Below are positions 12,207-62,682 of a stretch of 64,000 nucleotides of DNA, one piece after another. The DNA lies in sequence record MK327943.1; one strand, 5' to 3'. This DNA comes from Escherichia phage vB_EcoM_G53. How positions within the stretch are numbered: the stretch's first letter is position 1; the number at the start of each line of letters is the position of its first letter. The notes beneath the pieces are model-generated. The model saw only the letters and a program-made list of their open reading frames with translations. It ran no database searches and was not told the DNA's origin. A program made the translations under genes and the position numbers.

Positions 12207-12815
12207 TCAGTAACTGACAATAGACAGATTCCAGATTGTATAACGTCCATCTTGAATAATAGAATCTACACGCAGTGTAGTCCCTATAGGGAGCATAAAT
12301 TCACATTCGTCAGATATAAGTCTAGCATTAGACCGTCTTGTCGCTTCAGGGAAAGCTCCATTGAACTCACAAGATGGCGCAGCCAGAATCATGTTAAGCA
12401 TATGTTCACGGAAGTTGAAAGCAAATGGTGCATCTTTAATGCAGAACATATTAAATGTTCCGTAAAAATTATACGAAGCAAAGTTACGTGCTACACCGAA
12501 CACTGGGCTGAAGCTCATTACTCTGTCAAATTTAATAATACTACCAATGCCTTTATCATCAAGTGTGGCCATAGTTTTCTTAGAGATTCCACGATACATT
12601 GTCTCAGGAACAGAAGACGACCAATTTCTACGAACGATTGAACTTAACTCCTGTTGAATACAGTCTGGCTTGTTTTCCATACACTGCCACAGTACACTTT
12701 GTTCAATGTCGCTGAATTGACTATCAATTTCGTATTGCAATTCATCTTGATATTCAGGGTTTTGAGCACGACGAACCATTTCTTCAATTTCACACTCGTT
12801 ATACGGCATAAACAT
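12207..12815 (-). CDS. ADP-ribosyltransferase, ModA/ModB family
   Basis: 202-aa ORF; R-S-E type motifs (YRG, SFSP, ECEF); paralog of 12873..13454. Confidence 0.6.
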   Translation of the reverse strand: MFMPYNECEIEEMVRRAQNPEYQDELQYEIDSQFSDIEQSVLWQCMENKPDCIQQELSSIVRRNWSSSVPETMYRGISKKTMATLDDKGIGSIIKFDRVMSFSPVFGVARNFASYNFYGTFNMFCIKDAPFAFNFREHMLNMILAAPSCEFNGAFPEATRRSNARLISDECEFMLPIGTTLRVDSIIQDGRYTIWNLSIVSY

Positions 12816-12843
12816 TTAGGTTTCTCCTGTGGTTGATAAAGGT

Positions 12844-12872
12844 ATAGTATCATCATCGGAAGAGTTTGTACA
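12844..12872 (-). promoter_or_regulatory. early promoter
   Basis: minus strand TGTACA, 17-nt spacer, TACTAT, directly after the upstream stop. Confidence 0.45.
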
Positions 12873-13454
12873 CTAAAAATTCAACATTTTCAAATGAATG
12901 ATTTTGTATAATCGAGATAAAGGGTCGTATTCTAAGTCTTCAATTTCCACAATCTCAAATCTAGAGATACCTGAGACCATGTACTCTTGTTCAGATTCAA
13001 TCATATCTAGGACGTCAACACGCGTTTCTTCCATAACATGCTTAGGGTTCTTTCCGGCGAGTACAATGTTAACCATGTTTTGGTAGTAATCAAAAATGAA
13101 TGGAGCATTCCTGAGACTAAGAATAGTGTACGTCTGATATTCCCATCTCCCAGAGAATTGACGAGCTGTACTGAAATCAGTTGTGAACGATGTTACTCGT
13201 CCAGGAGACCAATGGCATCCAACAGAAAGAAGAGAAAGACGTTCTACTTCTTCTGGAGTTACACCGCGGTAGAGTTCTACTGGTACTGTAGAAGTCATAT
13301 GCTTACGAACAAGATGGTCTAATTCATAGTGGAAATCCGGGTCTTCCTTAGAATCGGTGCAAGCCCAGAGAATGTTTTGTTCTTGGCGGGTGAATTTGCT
13401 ATCAATAAGATTTGTTAGGTATTCACGTTCTTGAAGTTCAGATTGACATGTCAT
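12873..13454 (-). CDS. ADP-ribosyltransferase, ModA/ModB family
   Basis: 193-aa ORF; YRG...SFTTDFSTARQF...EQEYM motifs. Confidence 0.6.
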   Translation of the reverse strand: MTCQSELQEREYLTNLIDSKFTRQEQNILWACTDSKEDPDFHYELDHLVRKHMTSTVPVELYRGVTPEEVERLSLLSVGCHWSPGRVTSFTTDFSTARQFSGRWEYQTYTILSLRNAPFIFDYYQNMVNIVLAGKNPKHVMEETRVDVLDMIESEQEYMVSGISRFEIVEIEDLEYDPLSRLYKIIHLKMLNF

Positions 13455-17871: not shown

Positions 17872-18531
17872 TTAACCTCGATTCATAAATGCATTAAATA
17901 TTTGGTCATCAACAGAAATTTCTAATTCGACTTCAATTGCTTCAGCCTTTTCTTCAGGTGGTAATTCGTATCCACACACTACAATTTTTTCATCGATATC
18001 AAAATATATAGAAGCAATACGATTAATGTTATTTTCAGTTAAGTCCAAATCAACATCAACATCTTTTTGGCCTACACTTAGAGGATAACTAATACGGGTT
18101 ATTTTATTATCTTTAACAAAGAGTCCACCAACATACTCTGTACTACGTTTGAAGTTTACACGTTTCCGAATTGAAAGATATGATACATCTTTACCGTGAG
18201 CTCGGCTCATAGGACATAATGAATAGCTAGAATAAGAGATGTCAAATCCTACACCTTCAATATGAGCCAACGTGTCATGATTAAACCAATTATAATCATA
18301 TGCCAAATCCATTATATTGTAATATGTGAAAGGCACAGGATTAACATCATATGTTGTACCTTTAAAATCTGCCCAGGCAACGATTTCGTTATCTTTAACA
18401 ATTACAAAAATTACACCAATATGGTATCCGTTATTATTTTCATTCGGCGTTATATTATAACATTGTGCATTAGGAAATTTACCATATTTAAATGGCGCAT
18501 TTTTGTGCATATAATAAATCATATTATTCAC
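17872..18531 (-). CDS. hypothetical protein
   Basis: 219-aa ORF. Confidence 0.45.
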   Translation of the reverse strand: MNNMIYYMHKNAPFKYGKFPNAQCYNITPNENNNGYHIGVIFVIVKDNEIVAWADFKGTTYDVNPVPFTYYNIMDLAYDYNWFNHDTLAHIEGVGFDISYSSYSLCPMSRAHGKDVSYLSIRKRVNFKRSTEYVGGLFVKDNKITRISYPLSVGQKDVDVDLDLTENNINRIASIYFDIDEKIVVCGYELPPEEKAEAIEVELEISVDDQIFNAFMNRG

Positions 18532-56240: not shown

Positions 56241-56543
56241 TTAGATAGATGTAGGCTCTAATTTTATTTTCATGAACTCGGCAAATTGTCTGGCAGTTTT
56301 TATGCCTTGTTCATGACATTCAAATGCATCATCACAGGGACTATTTTTGTAATGCTTTGCCATATACTTATAGAATTTTTCAGAATTCTCGACATTTTGA
56401 ATTTCAAACAAAGTATATACGTTTTTAATCCCTGATTCCATAAAGTTATCAAAATATGGGTCGATATGTGCAGTACCAACGATAGGAGTTGTTGCTGCAA
56501 AAAACCCCAGCATCGCTATGACAGCTATCGCTCTTAAGGCCAT
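56241..56543 (-). CDS. secreted/periplasmic protein
   Basis: 100-aa ORF with N-terminal signal-like hydrophobic segment. Confidence 0.45.
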   Translation of the reverse strand: MALRAIAVIAMLGFFAATTPIVGTAHIDPYFDNFMESGIKNVYTLFEIQNVENSEKFYKYMAKHYKNSPCDDAFECHEQGIKTARQFAEFMKIKLEPTSI

Positions 56544-56555
56544 ATAGGCCTCCTG

Positions 56556-56768
56556 TTAATTTTGGCCAGTATTTATTTTTCGCCTTTGGACGGCCTTAAC
56601 ATCTGTGAGGTATTTTTCCAGCTTGCGCTTGCGTGTATAATCAGCTTTAGAACCGGTTTGACGGATATCCTCGTTTAAATGAGAAATAGAATGTCCTAAT
56701 TCTCTTCGGATTTCATCTAATTGGGTTACAGTAAGATTACGAAGTTGTCTTTCGTTTAATTGCTGCAT
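56556..56768 (-). CDS. small basic protein
   Basis: 70-aa ORF. Confidence 0.4.
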
Positions 56769-56795
56769 ATATACCTCTTGGTTAGATATTAGTAT

Positions 56796-57377
56796 TTATA
56801 ACAACCCTGTCAAATCATTCCAATGCTTCCGGCATAATGACACATATCTATCGGTATCACCAATTTCAATTTGACTGCCATCTGTAATTGGAAGTCCGTC
56901 TTCCGTGACTCTAGCTACCATTGTGGCCTTTTTACCACAATGACAGACACCTTTAAGTTCAACAAGCTTATCGGCAATAGCCATTAATGCTTGAGAACCT
57001 TCAAATAGATTACCTTTAAAATCTGTTCGTAGTCCATATGCCATTACCGGCACATTGTACACGTCAACAATACGACTAAGTTGATACACCTTTTCAGTAG
57101 TTAAGAACTGAGCTTCGTCAACAAATACACAATGAATATCCTTTTGTGCTGCAGCCCATTTATAAAATTCAAAGATATCCATGTCTTTTGTAATTATATT
57201 GGCATCCTGACGAATACCAATACGAGAGACTATTTCACCTTTTGAATCGCGAGTATCAATAGCCGGTTTAAGAACTAATACACCCATGCCACGTTCTTTA
57301 TAGTTATGTGCGGCAGTAAGTAATGAAGCAGACTTACCAGCGTTCATAGCGGCATAGGTAAAAATTAAACTAGCCAT
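56796..57377 (-). CDS. tk: thymidine kinase
   Basis: 193-aa ORF; P-loop AMNAGKS; C-terminal zinc ribbon CHCGKKA...CRKH; same length as T4 Tk. Confidence 0.85.
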   Translation of the reverse strand: MASLIFTYAAMNAGKSASLLTAAHNYKERGMGVLVLKPAIDTRDSKGEIVSRIGIRQDANIITKDMDIFEFYKWAAAQKDIHCVFVDEAQFLTTEKVYQLSRIVDVYNVPVMAYGLRTDFKGNLFEGSQALMAIADKLVELKGVCHCGKKATMVARVTEDGLPITDGSQIEIGDTDRYVSLCRKHWNDLTGLL

Positions 57378-57386
57378 AAGAGTCCC

Positions 57387-57569
57387 TTATAGTGAATTCA
57401 CGTAGTCAATGAGTTCTTGTTCTTTCCTGTCAAATGATTCCAACAATGCTTGATATTCTTCGTCTGTTAAAGGAGCATATTCATCGTACGCATTGGTGGC
57501 TGCTTGCTCATCCAATAGGTCATGGATAAGTTCGAACAGTTTAGTTTTCTCTTCTTTAGTCAATTTCAT
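57387..57569 (-). CDS. small acidic protein
   Basis: 60-aa ORF. Confidence 0.35.
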   Translation of the reverse strand: MKLTKEEKTKLFELIHDLLDEQAATNAYDEYAPLTDEEYQALLESFDRKEQELIDYVNSL

Positions 57570-57793
57570 TTAGGTTCACCTTCTTTAACGAAATCTGGGT
57601 AAGGGTAAAATCCTGAGTAAAACCCTTCACCTTTATGATTGCTACAACCTTTGTTCGAACAGTAACACCAATAATCAAAATCACAAGCCATTTCGTCATT
57701 GCATAAAGCAAAAACTACAGGCCATTCGCATTTTTCGCATTTAGCACCTGTAAGAATTTTTGTTTGACTCATAGCCATGTCACCTTTAAGCAA
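57566..57793 (-). CDS. small Cys-rich (zinc-binding-like) protein
   Basis: 75-aa ORF with 9 Cys (CEKCEW...CNDEMACDFDYWCYCSNKGC). Confidence 0.4.
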   Translation of the reverse strand: MLKGDMAMSQTKILTGAKCEKCEWPVVFALCNDEMACDFDYWCYCSNKGCSNHKGEGFYSGFYPYPDFVKEGEPK

Positions 57794-57996
57794 TATTCTT
57801 CTACATGTTGTTTACGGCCTTTCTTATCAATAAAGGTATATTCAACGAATGTTCCGATGTAGTCTTTATCTACATCATGTGGACTATTAATTGGACATTT
57901 GGTACGACAAATGCGTTCCCATTGACGAATAATTACTGCCTTATTCTTTGGGTCATATGGATGTGGATAATGTATATTCATAATAACGGTTCCCAA
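57769..57996 (-). CDS. small hypothetical protein
   Basis: 75-aa ORF. Confidence 0.4.
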   Translation of the reverse strand: MGTVIMNIHYPHPYDPKNKAVIIRQWERICRTKCPINSPHDVDKDYIGTFVEYTFIDKKGRKQHVEEYCLKVTWL

Positions 57997-58475
57997 TCAA
58001 CAATCACAATTTCTAGTTTAGTAGAATACGTATCTAAAATCTCTTCGATGACATCCCAGTTTCCACCACCAATACCTGCACCAATTCTTGGCATATAAAT
58101 TACAGGCTTTATTATCTTATTCTTTCCGAATTCATTTAATTCTATTATACAATTCATTAAAGCAGAGTACTCAAAATTAGGTCCCGGCTCAAACTGTGTA
58201 TAAAGATTAAAGCAATAAGCTTTATGGGTCTTAAAATATTTTTCATAAACCGAATAAGTCCCGAGTTTAGACTCGTCTCCGAATTCGGTTTGAAGTTTAT
58301 CGGCTTCCAGAATTTTTGGATAAGCCTTTGCTAATTGTCCTGCCACACCCGCGCCCATTGTATGAAAACAATTACACCCATGAGCAATATTATTACCTTT
58401 AGAAAACAGGGCGACAATATCGCCCTTGATATAGTTTTTAATCACTTGCTGCAAGTCCTCTATTATAAGAGTCAA
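57978..58475 (-). CDS. macro-domain protein (ADP-ribose binding/processing)
   Basis: 165-aa ORF; NIAHGCNCFHTMGAGVAGQLAK and PRIGAGIGGGNW match macrodomain motifs. Confidence 0.6.
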   Translation of the reverse strand: MTLIIEDLQQVIKNYIKGDIVALFSKGNNIAHGCNCFHTMGAGVAGQLAKAYPKILEADKLQTEFGDESKLGTYSVYEKYFKTHKAYCFNLYTQFEPGPNFEYSALMNCIIELNEFGKNKIIKPVIYMPRIGAGIGGGNWDVIEEILDTYSTKLEIVIVDWEPLL

Positions 58476-58785
58476 CTAGACGGTCCACCATAGAATTGCA
58501 TGCTGCCTTATCTTTAGGTTCCGCCACCGAGCATTCTAATATTTGCCATTTTTTATAGTATCTTTTAATTAAGGTAGACGCCTTGAACCTACTAGACGCC
58601 CCGTCTTTTTCTCCGTCTTTATACGCATATAACAATTTTTGTGAAAAATCTACTTTACACTCTTGACTTTTACCACAGTAATCAGACGCCGTTCTGTTTG
58701 TATACTCCGTTACATCAGTATATGTAGTATTAGCAAGAGCGTTAAATGAAACCAAGCCAACTATTAAAGCCAACATTTTGGTCAT
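58438..58785 (-). CDS. secreted Cys-containing protein
   Basis: 115-aa ORF with signal peptide. Confidence 0.45.
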   Translation of the reverse strand: MTKMLALIVGLVSFNALANTTYTDVTEYTNRTASDYCGKSQECKVDFSQKLLYAYKDGEKDGASSRFKASTLIKRYYKKWQILECSVAEPKDKAACNSMVDRLVDSYNRGLAASD

Positions 58786-59324
58786 TCTTTTATTTCCAGT
58801 AGTTTATTTGATTTAAGGTAATTAGCCTTTTCTAGGACTTCAGAAGCATATTTACTTCCGGCACTTGTCTTCCATCCCGCATTATATGAGGATATAGCTT
58901 TTCTTATATCCCCGTTATGTATATTTAACCAATAAGAAAATTCGATATAAGCCCATCTGGCTGAATTAGACCGCTTAGATAGCATTTTCTTAATTTGGGC
59001 ATCAGTCATATTATAACCAAGTTGGTTAATTCTTGCCCTCATTGTTGGTAGATAATTTTGGAACATTCCATACGCATGGTGACCTTTCTTATCTTTAAGA
59101 TTAATACCGGCAGATGATTCCTGCCATAGTATTGCGGCCATTATGTATCCAAGTCCTTTCTTATGCATATTTTCATGCGTTTTAAATTTTCCATCCTTAG
59201 AAAACTGTTCCCCAAACTGATAAGCATAATTCAAGTTATCGAGTTGGACATTACTAAAAGTATGCTCGGAGCTATGTGCTGATAACGAAAGAGCAAATAG
59301 ACCAGCGAGTAGTGCTTTTCTCAT
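58782..59324 (-). CDS. periplasmic lytic transglycosylase-like protein (SLT domain)
   Basis: 180-aa ORF; signal peptide; WQESS catalytic-Glu context and AYGMFQ motif. Confidence 0.5.
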   Translation of the reverse strand: MRKALLAGLFALSLSAHSSEHTFSNVQLDNLNYAYQFGEQFSKDGKFKTHENMHKKGLGYIMAAILWQESSAGINLKDKKGHHAYGMFQNYLPTMRARINQLGYNMTDAQIKKMLSKRSNSARWAYIEFSYWLNIHNGDIRKAISSYNAGWKTSAGSKYASEVLEKANYLKSNKLLEIKE

Positions 59325-59332
59325 GTTTACCT

Positions 59333-59791
59333 CTAGATTTTAATCACTGCTTTAGAAGCTTTTCCTGGTAGTCGTTTACTGTTAATAATAGCCATTCTAC
59401 ATCGAAGAGTCTTCATTTTGAATGCCGGATTTTCGCGACAAACTGTAAGTCCTAACCAAAGATTTCCGTCAGTTATTTCTAAACGGCCTGGACGATACTC
59501 GACACCTTCGACAAAATCTTCATCAACATCTGGACGTGCCGGCATTGATAAAAATTCTGCAACTTCTTTAACGTGATTTTTTACTTTATGAAATAATTCA
59601 AAAACGTAATTCTCATCTATTTCTCTCTGGATGGCACGATCTAAGAGATGTTGAGAATACTTGATATGAAAGCCTGGTAGTCCAAGAGACTTTGCAGCAT
59701 CTTTTATACCGGCATTTATTTTGCGGAACTCCGTTTCAAAGATTCGACGGAGTTTATTACGGCGGATAAAAACTTCCGAATTGATAGTCAT
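59333..59791 (-). CDS. regB: RegB endoribonuclease
   Basis: 152 aa from the ATG at 59791 (MTINSEVFIRRNKLRR...); highly similar to T4 RegB as I recall it. Confidence 0.85.
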   Translation of the reverse strand: MTINSEVFIRRNKLRRIFETEFRKINAGIKDAAKSLGLPGFHIKYSQHLLDRAIQREIDENYVFELFHKVKNHVKEVAEFLSMPARPDVDEDFVEGVEYRPGRLEITDGNLWLGLTVCRENPAFKMKTLRCRMAIINSKRLPGKASKAVIKI

Positions 59792-59819
59792 TTTGATTTC
59801 TCCTCTAGTTGACAAGTCT

Positions 59820-59849
59820 ATAGTAACACAACTAGAGGAGAAGTAAACT
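59820..59849 (-). promoter_or_regulatory. early promoter with 12-bp perfect inverted repeat spanning spacer and regB SD
   Basis: minus strand GTTTAC, 18-nt spacer, TACTAT; ctcctctagttg in the spacer pairs with caactagaggag carrying the SD. Confidence 0.55.
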
Positions 59850-60147
59850 ACTCTTTGAAAGGAATTAACTTTTTAACTGCTTTAGATACTTCGTCACGAA
59901 CCTGATGGAAGTTCTTGAGCTGTTCAAGGCGTTGTTCGTAATACGCAATCTCATCTTCTTCAAGACAATCGTCAGCGTCTTCTTTCAGATATGCCTTGTA
60001 CTCATTAAAGAGGGCCCATAGGCGGTTCTCAAAGTCATCAAGGCTTTGAATTTTCTTGTGCTTCGGAACAAGGCCAAAAGGATTGCTTTCAGTTATGCGT
60101 CTAGATGCTTCATAATGAGTTCCAAAGCCTGATAGGATTTGAGCCAT
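59848..60147 (-). CDS. hypothetical protein
   Basis: 99-aa ORF. Confidence 0.45.
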
Positions 60148-60413
60148 TAGTATTTTTCCTCAGGTCGAAATACCGCACGACATGCCCACATGCTGGCTTC
60201 TTTTAGATGTTGCTTAGCATACTTAAGAGCCTGCACTGCATCCATATCTTCTTTGGTTTGTTGCTCTGTTTCATTTTCTTTCAAGATATATGCTTCTTCA
60301 ATCAGAGCATCAAACAACAATCCAAGACGGACTTCTGCATCTTTAATAGCGTTCACTTTACCGATTTTATCATCGGTATGCGGCTTGTAGCCTTTGATGT
60401 CTTCAATCGACAT
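60147..60413 (-). CDS. hypothetical protein (start placed at MSIEDIKG)
   Basis: ORF 60147..60581 trimmed to the ATG near the upstream stop. Confidence 0.4.
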
Positions 60414-60627
60414 AAGGAATTTCCTCATCTGTGGCAAGGTCATATTCGACCAATTGGATAGGCTCATTAATACCATATCCACGTACAGTGATATCAGTTG
60501 TCGGATAGTTTCCAGTAATATCACCCATTCTAAATGATTCAGTGAATGATTGCTCGCCTGAGCAACTAAACCAGGCGGCAAAACATTTTAAAACATCTTC
60601 AGACCCTTCTATAATCAATTTAGCCAT
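60403..60627 (-). CDS. small hypothetical protein
   Basis: 74-aa ORF. Confidence 0.4.
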   Translation of the reverse strand: MAKLIIEGSEDVLKCFAAWFSCSGEQSFTESFRMGDITGNYPTTDITVRGYGINEPIQLVEYDLATDEEIPYVD

Positions 60628-60989
60628 TATAGACTCTCAGTAAAGGTGCGAGCGATAACGTCACGCTGCTGTTCCGGAGTCAGAGAGTTAAAGCGAACTG
60701 CATAACCGGATACACGGATGGTCAGCTGCGGATATTTTTCCGGATGCTTAACTGCATCTTCCAGAGTTTCACGACGCAGAACGTTAACGTTCAGGTGTTG
60801 ACCACCTTCAATTTTAACTTTAGGTTGATGTTCAATTTCAATTTCACGGGCATTCAAACCGTAGAAAATTTCCGGGTCTACAATAGCGTCTTCTTTAAAA
60901 GTCTTAGAGACAATAATCCGGGCTTGAGTACCGTCTTCAAAATAAATAGTGCCTTTATGTGCACCTTCAAGAATTTGATATGCTTTCAT
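60627..60989 (-). CDS. autonomous glycyl-radical cofactor protein (GrcA/YfiD-like)
   Basis: 120-aa ORF; C-terminal [27 protein letters not shown] glycyl-radical (PFL-type RVSGY) motif. Confidence 0.65.
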
Positions 60990-60995
60990 ATAACC

Positions 60996-61304
60996 TCAAT
61001 TAGAAAATAAATTTATCCAAGTTTTTTCTTTAATCAAAAATGGGTCGGAATTAAACGCCATTAAACTTTGAGTGATTAATCCCTTAAATGGCCCATCAAT
61101 AAATTCCATTTTGAAATGTGGAATACTAGTCATCAACCGTGCATTAGGAGCAGTACAAAGAACCTGCTGCCCTGCGAACGGACCTTTAGTCAAACGATAT
61201 CGTTTAGGTTTAAAATGGTAAATCTCGTAATTTTCTACAAGGGCCCTTTTATTGCATACTGGGCTGTTATAACAATATTCAAAAACTTCAATAGTGGTCA
61301 TCAT
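60996..61304 (-). CDS. hypothetical protein
   Basis: 102-aa ORF. Confidence 0.45.
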   Translation of the reverse strand: MMTTIEVFEYCYNSPVCNKRALVENYEIYHFKPKRYRLTKGPFAGQQVLCTAPNARLMTSIPHFKMEFIDGPFKGLITQSLMAFNSDPFLIKEKTWINLFSN

Positions 61305-61840
61305 TGCATTCCAATCACAAAAAATTGAGGACGAGCATTACCGCCGATGCAATATTTGCTTTTGCAACAGTGTTGGACTGTTTTAATATGTACATTGTAA
61401 ATCTTATCCATATCAGGAGCTTTAATAGGCTCGTCAATTATATACAGAATACGAGAAAGCGTTAATCCACGGAATTTAGAACCTTCATTGCCAATAAAAC
61501 TACGAACAGAATCAGTAAATAAACGGAATCGAATATCGTCGCTAGAATAACGAGAAAATTCTTTTTCAATGTTGCCAGCAGAAATTTTAGCATAAGCTGA
61601 AGTATTAGAAAGAACAATAACTGTTCCGCCATCATACAGCCAATTAGCAGCAAAGTTAGTCACAGCAATTGATTTACCTGATTGTCGGCCGCCGTCTAAA
61701 CGAAGTGTACAGTACTGCTTGAGTACGTCTTCAAATGGTGGGACATAACCGTTCTTACAAATTTCTTCTACTCTAGCATCAGAATGGTGTGTAAAAGCAT
61801 TCATCAGGGATAGATAAGGTCCAGTTAAAAATGTTCTCAT
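61301..61840 (-). CDS. P-loop protein (start placed at MRTFLTGP)
   Basis: ORF-track start at 61876 is a GTG; ATG at 61840; GGRQSGKS Walker A-like. Confidence 0.4.
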   Translation of the reverse strand: MRTFLTGPYLSLMNAFTHHSDARVEEICKNGYVPPFEDVLKQYCTLRLDGGRQSGKSIAVTNFAANWLYDGGTVIVLSNTSAYAKISAGNIEKEFSRYSSDDIRFRLFTDSVRSFIGNEGSKFRGLTLSRILYIIDEPIKAPDMDKIYNVHIKTVQHCCKSKYCIGGNARPQFFVIGMQ

Positions 61841-62012
61841 ATTATTTCTCTTAAGGTTGGGGCCATTCCGTGGCACATGTTAGGTCCTTCGACTCGCTAT
61901 GTAAACCCATTACCGCATTGCGCTCGACCTTATTACAGGTTGGAAAAGGTACATCACTCAGAGGACTCGACGTTCATGAGGAGAGGTTGCGTTTCCCTTT
62001 ATTAGGCAAGAA

Positions 62013-62342
62013 TTATACTCTAGGCTTTTGAGCTTGTTTGGTATTGGATTCCCATGCGGCTTTGGTAATTTTGTTAGCGGCATAACCAAAGGCATTAGAT
62101 AGAACACCTTTAGAGTTGAATACATCCAATCCAATAAGTACACCGGCTGTGTTAAATTTAGGAGCAAAGTACGCATTAGTTTTAGAAAGAACTTTTTTCA
62201 ATTCAGGGTCTTGAACCAAGCCATCAAAAACGCCTTTACTATTTACTTTGTATGTTACTTTGGGATTTTTACCTTCTTCGATAGCAGCTTTCTGTTCCGC
62301 AGATAATGTAACTTCAGTGATAAACTCCTGATATGTTTTCAT
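62013..62342 (-). CDS. internal protein (IP) with capsid-targeting leader
   Basis: 109-aa ORF beginning MKTYQEFITE, the T4 IP leader consensus; AAGGA SD. Confidence 0.6.
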   Translation of the reverse strand: MKTYQEFITEVTLSAEQKAAIEEGKNPKVTYKVNSKGVFDGLVQDPELKKVLSKTNAYFAPKFNTAGVLIGLDVFNSKGVLSNAFGYAANKITKAAWESNTKQAQKPRV

Positions 62343-62367
62343 TTTGTTCCTATTGTTTTAATTTATG

Positions 62368-62682
62368 TTATTCTTTAGGGAAGTTTTTAGAGTATGCATC
62401 ATAAAGTTTATTACCAATACGACGGAAGACTTTAGCTGCAAAACGGTTTTCAGGGTTTTTAATCATGATTTGCATCATGTAAGTTCCTGCATCCGAAAGA
62501 GCTTCTTCATAGTACCCATTAATTTCTTTAAGAGTCCTACGTTTACCGCCAGGACCATCAACAGTAATTTTCCATTTACCTGTAGAAGTGCGGCTCGGTG
62601 GCTCAACTTGTTCAATCCAAATATAACCACCTTCAACGCGTTGGTTGGCGGATTCTGCAATAAATTCTTTATACGTTTTCAT
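62368..62682 (-). CDS. internal protein (IP) with capsid-targeting leader
   Basis: 104-aa ORF beginning MKTYKEFIAE. Confidence 0.6.
   Translation of the reverse strand: MKTYKEFIAESANQRVEGGYIWIEQVEPPSRTSTGKWKITVDGPGGKRRTLKEINGYYEEALSDAGTYMMQIMIKNPENRFAAKVFRRIGNKLYDAYSKNFPKE

Follow-up and report, generated by a model that had tools for sequence, protein, structure and literature searches.

What does a stand-alone macrodomain do in a T4-related phage, and is its target an ADP-ribose mark made by the phage or one made by the host? The question is raised by a minus-strand gene next to vs in the 64-kb stretch of DNA from Escherichia phage vB_EcoM_G53 that was analyzed here (hereafter, the window). 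A preliminary description of this locus called the product a macrodomain protein, paired it with two ModA/ModB-type ADP-ribosyltransferases encoded in the same genome, and offered as another option that it might counter a host defense based on ADP-ribosylation.

The ORF listing of the 64-kb window gives the gene as a minus-strand ORF at 57978..58475, or 165 aa if counted from a TTG codon, and the preliminary description used this extent. The ORF is real, but its 5′ boundary needs correction, with GTG at 58445 favored over TTG at 58475. The elements of the locus are as follows:

57978..58445, minus strand: coding sequence of tk.4/adfM, a stand-alone macrodomain of 155 aa from the GTG (468 nt, stop codon included)
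58446..58475, minus strand: upstream extension of the longest, TTG-started ORF, which is the 3′ end of vs (vs ORF 58438..58785)
58456..58460, minus strand: Shine-Dalgarno-like GAGGA, 10–11 nt 5′ of the GTG, kept in T4 and RB32 (sequence and DNA alignment)
58408..58426, minus strand: 8-bp GC-rich hairpin, AGGGCGAT ATT GTCGCCCT, then a GUUUUCU U-tract, ~20 nt into the tk.4 coding sequence and just past the vs stop codon

The GTG at 58445 is most likely the true start of tk.4 because three comparisons agree: alignments with tk.4 homologues begin at residue 11 of the 165-aa ORF and none earlier; the ATG of tk.4 in both T4 and RB32 aligns with the window GTG (58445..58443) at the DNA level; and phage MM02, 99.3% identical, carries an identical 468-nt, 155-aa coding sequence annotated as ‘macro domain protein’. 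The TTG start was ruled out on these same grounds. The vs stop codon and the tk.4 GTG overlap (GTGATTAA), and the extra 10 codons (58446..58475) probably do not contribute to the tk.4 product, being a longest-ORF artefact inside vs.

The hairpin at 58408..58426 (−13.8 kcal/mol, z −2.5, by terminator scan and RNA folding) is kept in T4 and RB32. In phage NBG1, where the macrodomain coding sequence has been cut to 126 aa, it is annotated as ‘terminator’. The hairpin may serve to attenuate or terminate transcription after vs, between vs and tk.4. A promoter scan of 56500..62500 returned 16 sigma-70-like sites versus 20.5 in shuffled sequence; with fewer sites than in the shuffled sequence, the scan is uninformative on expression.

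That the tk.4 product is a genuine macrodomain, as the preliminary description proposed, is confirmed by profile, sequence, and structural comparisons. The Pfam Macro family (PF01661) matches at 28.2 bits, above its gathering cut-off of 22, with profile positions 2–117 of 118 aligned, and PHROG 335 matches at an E-value of 2e-66. A PDB sequence search retrieved BT1257 (8e-11), yeast Poa1p, SCO6735, DarG, and TARG1. An alignment of 46 sequences gave an AlphaFold2 model with a pLDDT of 95.8 and a pTM of 0.91, and Foldseek matched this model to TARG1 (4j5r, E 4.7e-10), Poa1p (6lfr, 1.6e-9), Thermus DarG (5m3e, 6.7e-8), BT1257 (2afc, 1.2e-7), and SCO6735 (5e3b, 2.3e-6). At E ≤ 0.001, Foldseek returned 119 PDB matches; the top 50 are macrodomain structures or designs on a macrodomain-like scaffold. 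The model and these matches show the three-layer α/β macro fold. The protein has the family-conserved ADP-ribose-binding elements, namely N25 after strand 2, G31/G33, and G122/G124/G126–128 (residue numbers count from the GTG throughout). The sole match in the NCBIfam and PADLOC searches was DarG, in its macrodomain part.

The preliminary description was aware of no macrodomain gene in T4; T4 does have one. Its tk.4 (NP_049723) encodes 155 aa, described in RefSeq as ‘phosphatase; Tk.4; contains A1pp phosphatase motif’, and aligns with the window protein gap-free with 131 of 155 residues identical (84.5%, E 5e-105). The gene order in the window is tk, small ORFs, tk.3, tk.4, vs, vs.1, and regB, as in T4 and RB32 (by comparison of ORF order with both phages and by tblastn with T4 Tk.3, Tk.4, and Vs), so that the position of tk.4 between tk.3 and vs in the tk–regB block is conserved. 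By these comparisons, the window gene is a syntenic orthologue of T4 tk.4/adfM. The two proteins have in common every invariant family residue, including H22, N25, and Q84. They differ by 24 substitutions, none at an invariant family column, among them G127 in the window for K127 of T4 in a glycine-rich loop; the start codon is ATG in T4 and GTG in the window. T4 is a Tequatrovirus, whereas the window comes from a mar005P1/MM02-like Mosigvirus: the records nearest to it (p000y, MM02, mar005P1, and NBG1, at 99% identity) are assigned to Mosigvirus mar005p1. Relatives of the tk.4 protein were found by tblastn in 2798 phage records of many genera, and carriers of tk.4-type macrodomains include Felixounavirus, rV5-like, Vibrio, Pseudomonas, and Bacillus phages. 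Iyer et al. reported macrodomains in 41% of myoviruses (PMC9503650).

Several features of the neighborhood deserve mention in their own right. Across 57772..58785 (minus strand), the identity to T4 falls in a sharp mosaic gradient, with proteins identical at 100% for Tk.3, 84.5% for Tk.4, and 67.5% for Vs, and at 30–38% for the Mod-like proteins; this gradient suggests a recombination boundary near tk.3/tk.4. The vs gene (58438..58785, minus strand), encoding the valyl-tRNA synthetase modifier, has a 1-nt indel relative to T4 at its 3′ end that alters the last residues. In T4, minimal medium depletes vs more strongly than any other gene (HIDEN-SEQ, 10.1101/2025.11.20.689424). The N-terminus of the vs.1 orthologue (58782..59324, minus strand) resembles a signal peptide, and the protein weakly matches the SLT lytic transglycosylase family (E 0.0013, 18.8 bits, under the Pfam cut-off of 21.3). 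Between a tk.2-like ORF and tk.3 lies a cysteine-rich ORF of 75 aa (57566..57793, minus strand; CEKCEW...CNDEMACDFDYWCYCSNKGCSNH), which T4 lacks at this locus and which RB32 has, with the note ‘similar to RB49ORF089c’; from its sequence, it is possibly a small zinc-binding protein.

The T4 gene and its anti-DarTG2 role are already published. In the HIDEN-SEQ preprint of November 2025, a T4 transposon library yielded tk.4 as the single significant gene on a DarTG2-expressing host; a clean deletion made T4 DarTG2-sensitive, and the gene, scored as required solely with DarTG2 present, was renamed adfM, for anti-DarT factor, macrodomain (10.1101/2025.11.20.689424). The infection of DarTG-carrying hosts proposed in the preliminary description is the very experiment by which the T4 orthologue's function came to light, and its counter-defense option, borne out by that deletion, is correct yet already published. 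T4 without adfA and adfN stays DarTG2-resistant (PMC11825919). The window also contains, at 17875..18522 on the minus strand, an orthologue (65% identical) of T4 gene 61.2, encoding the anti-DarTG1 factor AdfA, and therefore a second anti-DarT gene. In the CmdTAC paper, no link to a phage macrodomain was found.

We consider it likely that the window gene is the T4 tk.4/adfM orthologue acting in anti-DarTG2 counter-defense. Its product, a 155-aa single-domain macrodomain, would be made early in infection from within the regB–vs–tk block. DarT2 of a host DarTG2 system would block replication by putting ADP-ribose on thymidine at TNTC-type motifs of single-stranded phage DNA; AdfM would bind the ADP-ribose via two glycine-rich loops and Asn25 and hydrolyze the base–ribose bond, leaving clean DNA, and would be in effect an ‘orphan antitoxin’. 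Its active site has Q84 for the lysine of DarG and TARG1 and no TARG1-type aspartate, which is the arrangement of SCO6735. By analogy, the window allele would do as T4 AdfM does, and T4-type AdfM would act by hydrolysis. Points that count against this explanation are the 24 of 155 residues that differ from T4, including the G127/K127 exchange, together with the acidic character of the protein and its lack of K34/K89 (see below).

The pairing with the phage's own ADP-ribosyltransferases fares differently. The two enzymes are where the preliminary description placed them (12207..13454), each with a PHROG 832 match of ~6e-38 and 30–38% identity to T4 ModA/ModB:

12207..12815, minus strand: Mod-type ADP-ribosyltransferase, ModA/ModB-like (PHROG 832 at 5.7e-38; 30–31% identity to T4 ModB/ModA)
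12873..13454, minus strand: second Mod-type ADP-ribosyltransferase, ModB-like (PHROG 832 at 5.9e-38; 38% identity to T4 ModB)

PHROG 832 is named ‘RNA polymerase ADP-ribosylase’, and R-S-ExE-type motifs can be read in both translations (YRG, SFS/SFT, and ECE/EQE). A Pfam search of the two ORFs gave no match, and the assignment comes from PHROGs and tblastn against T4. The tandem is highly divergent from T4 ModA/ModB, and a one-to-one correspondence is not assignable by identity alone. Mod and Alt enzymes modify arginine. With two Mod-type enzymes in the same genome, the macrodomain might erase or read ADP-ribose marks or RNAylation of phage origin, placed on host proteins by Alt, ModA, or ModB, and the existence of arginine-specific macrodomains such as Legionella MavL, cited in PMC13036486, makes the idea chemically possible. 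However, the Mod genes are unlinked to tk.4, ~45 kb distant, and the tk.4 protein is of the TARG1/DarG/SCO6735-like class, which acts on thymine and uracil bases and acidic residues; no MavL-type structure is found in the best 50 of the 119 fold matches. Many phage groups with no Mod-type match have tk.4-type macrodomains (2798 records versus 1078 with Mod-type enzymes, the latter mostly from enterobacterial T4-like phages), and T4 tk.4 was flagged as required with DarTG2 alone (10.1101/2025.11.20.689424). The pairing is thus unsupported, and we give hardly any weight to an action on the phage's own marks.

The active site indicates how a T4-type AdfM might work. Residue equivalences were taken from sequence and profile alignments (hmmsearch, hhalign, and MAFFT columns), and conservation was counted over 120 database homologues. 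The coding positions are:

58371..58382, minus strand: codons of H22-G23-C24-N25 (AHGCNC motif); N25 equals DarG N22, SCO6735 N27, and PhiKZ AdfM N23, and H22 equals SCO6735 H24 (hhalign)
58338..58358, minus strand: loop 1, MGAGVAG, residues 30–36, the GxG ADP-ribose/phosphate-binding loop (G33 invariant, G31 nearly so)
58194..58196, minus strand: codon of Q84 (NLYTQ motif), at the position of DarG K80, TARG1 K84, PhiKZ AdfM K78, and SCO6735 Gln85
58056..58085, minus strand: loop 2, IGAGIGGGNW, residues 121–130, the glycine-rich diphosphate-binding loop (I121, G122, G124, and W130 invariant)

Ten residues, H22, N25, G33, N80, Y82, Q84, P119, G122, G124, and W130, are each kept in at least 116 of the 120 homologues (H22 in 116, N25 in 118, and Q84 in 119). 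The conservation of N25, Q84, G33, G122, and G124, each in at least 118, argues for a selected enzymatic site. The GxG motif of macrodomains is described in PMC9503650, and N22/N23 have been named as active-site residues (PMC13309987). On alignment, N25 and the glycine loops are kept, but the lysine of DarG and TARG1 is Q84, and G126 falls at the position of the TARG1 catalytic aspartate, D125, so that the residues typical of DarG-type and TARG1-type catalysis are missing.

The closest parallel to this site is SCO6735 of Streptomyces coelicolor, which is without the Lys/Asp residues. Its Gln85 is essential (Q85A is inactive), and a water-mediated mechanism has been proposed; the enzyme cleaves thymidine-linked ADP-ribose off DNA and protects against DarT (PMC9411070). 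Q84, H22, and N25 of the tk.4 protein align with Q85, H24, and N27 of SCO6735 by both hhalign and MAFFT, and the MAFFT column of Q84 holds lysine in DarG (Thermus aquaticus and Mycobacterium tuberculosis), TARG1, and PhiKZ gp104, and glutamine in SCO6735 and BT1257. By hhalign, the tk.4 family matches SCO6735 (probability 98.4, E 7.6e-15) slightly better than T. aquaticus DarG (97.7, 1.9e-12). Both SCO6735 (5e3b) and BT1257 (2fg1/2afc) are also stand-alone proteins of ~150 aa with the His and Asn of the first motif (H24/N27) and a PRIG(A/C)G(I/L)(A/G)GGxW loop. With a near-invariant glutamine at the position of the catalytic lysine, as in SCO6735, the mechanism of T4-type AdfM looks SCO6735-like (Gln-type) rather than DarG-like, and Q84 would be expected to play the role of Gln85.

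The resemblance has limits. SCO6735 is only ~24% identical to the tk.4 protein and is encoded by a DNA-damage-inducible bacterial gene, and BT1257 comes from Bacteroides, whereas tk.4 is a phage gene. The DNA-contact lysines of SCO6735, K34 and K89, are not conserved, their places being taken by A32 and G88. SCO6735 and T. aquaticus DarG are basic (pI 9.2–9.7), while the tk.4 protein is mildly acidic (pI 5.6). With this pI and with K34/K89 absent, the sequence gives no clear sign of an electropositive DNA channel. PhiKZ AdfM is as acidic as the tk.4 protein.

The DarG2 macrodomain (T. aquaticus 5m31/5m3e, M. tuberculosis 5m3i) shares the fold (Foldseek 6.7e-8, TM ~0.75), the asparagine (N22), and the glycine loops with the tk.4 protein, and the two probably have a common substrate. 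DarG2 differs in having K80 where the tk.4 protein has Q84, and in its C-terminal DarT-binding domain and adjacent darT, in place of which tk.4 has only vs and tk.3 for neighbors. Filing the protein as a DarG was ruled out on the exchange of K80 for Gln, the missing C-terminal domain, and a score far under the cut-off (33.3 bits against 250 for the DarG2 equivalog NF048014).

If hydrolysis were dispensable, AdfM might bind the toxin or shield its product and neutralize DarT2 mainly in this way. This is conceivable because catalytically dead SCO6735 still inhibits DarT: the Q85A mutant of SCO6735, like DarG K80A and TARG1 K84A, does so in vitro, and the effect is greatest for SCO6735 (PMC9411070). 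Moreover, the canonical catalytic lysine is absent from the tk.4 protein, and hydrolysis by T4 AdfM is the preprint's inference from fold similarity only (10.1101/2025.11.20.689424). Yet the 155-aa protein covers only positions 4–146 of the 338 in the DarG model and has none of the DarT-binding domain that follows, and SCO6735, with Gln at the position of Q84, hydrolyzes fast (PMC9411070). Conservation of the ADP-ribose pocket also extends to 118 or more of the 120 homologues, which come from widely differing phages with hosts that carry different DarT proteins; this fits selection on catalysis and not on a protein–protein interface. We regard a non-catalytic mode of action as unlikely.

By fold, the protein comes closest to human TARG1/OARD1 and yeast Poa1p, of the Poa1p-like/ALC1-like macrodomain class. 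ADP-ribose linked to thymine or uracil is among the substrates of TARG1 (PMC9411070, PMC13036486). The K84/D125 dyad of TARG1 is replaced by Q84/G126 in the tk.4 protein, and a TARG1-type assignment was rejected because this catalytic dyad is missing. The historical ‘phosphatase / A1pp’ label raises another candidate activity, that of a small-molecule hydrolase acting as an ADP-ribose-1″-phosphate phosphatase or an O-acetyl-ADP-ribose deacetylase. The label stands in the T4 RefSeq entry quoted above and in the name of PHROG 335 (‘phosphatase’), and JGI calls homologues ‘O-acetyl-ADP-ribose deacetylase’; these names, however, are homology transfers. Poa1p has the top query-normalized TM-score (0.80, Foldseek) and an H-x-C-N-C motif in common with the tk.4 protein, but its sequence match is good in the N-terminal half only: of the probed Poa1p residues H23, S30, and F152, the first two align with H22 and T29, and the C-terminal half aligns poorly. 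To our knowledge, the Pnk/Rnl1 pathway of T4 RNA repair yields no Appr1p. The only known phenotype of T4 tk.4 is DarTG2-specific (10.1101/2025.11.20.689424), and a small-molecule hydrolase is, in our judgment, very unlikely.

A Gln-type base–ADP-ribose hydrolase might, on the other hand, have a wider set of substrates, e.g., uracil-linked ADP-ribose on RNA or marks made by further host ADP-ribosyltransferases that act on nucleic acids. We hold this to be a tenable, if rather doubtful, extension.

A second phage protein bears the same name. PhiKZ gp104, called AdfM in a 2026 paper, strips DarT2-installed ADP-ribose from DNA in vitro (PMC13309987). Like the tk.4 product, this chimallivirus protein is a stand-alone phage macrodomain with an anti-DarTG2 role; unlike it, gp104 has a DarG-like FPTKDNW motif with K78 and is imported into the phage nucleus. 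The hhalign match between gp104 and the tk.4 family (probability 96.6 over 116 columns) indicates distant kinship, and, judged from these alignments, the T4-type (Gln-type) and PhiKZ (Lys-type) AdfM belong to different macrodomain lineages.

The new point here is the glutamine in place of lysine at the catalytic position, an incremental refinement of what is known for T4. Glutamine where DarG and PhiKZ AdfM have lysine predicts an SCO6735-like mechanism, with Q84 as the obvious target for mutation. Were the wider substrate range to hold, phages would have drawn on two macrodomain lineages of different mechanism against ADP-ribosylating immunity, Gln-type in T-even phages and Lys-type in chimalliviruses. 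As already told for T4, T-even phages stack enzymes against DNA ADP-ribosylation, AdfA and AdfN against DarTG1 and AdfM against DarTG2. The window allele keeps every conserved residue, and, therefore, its Mosigvirus relatives should be DarTG2-resistant too.
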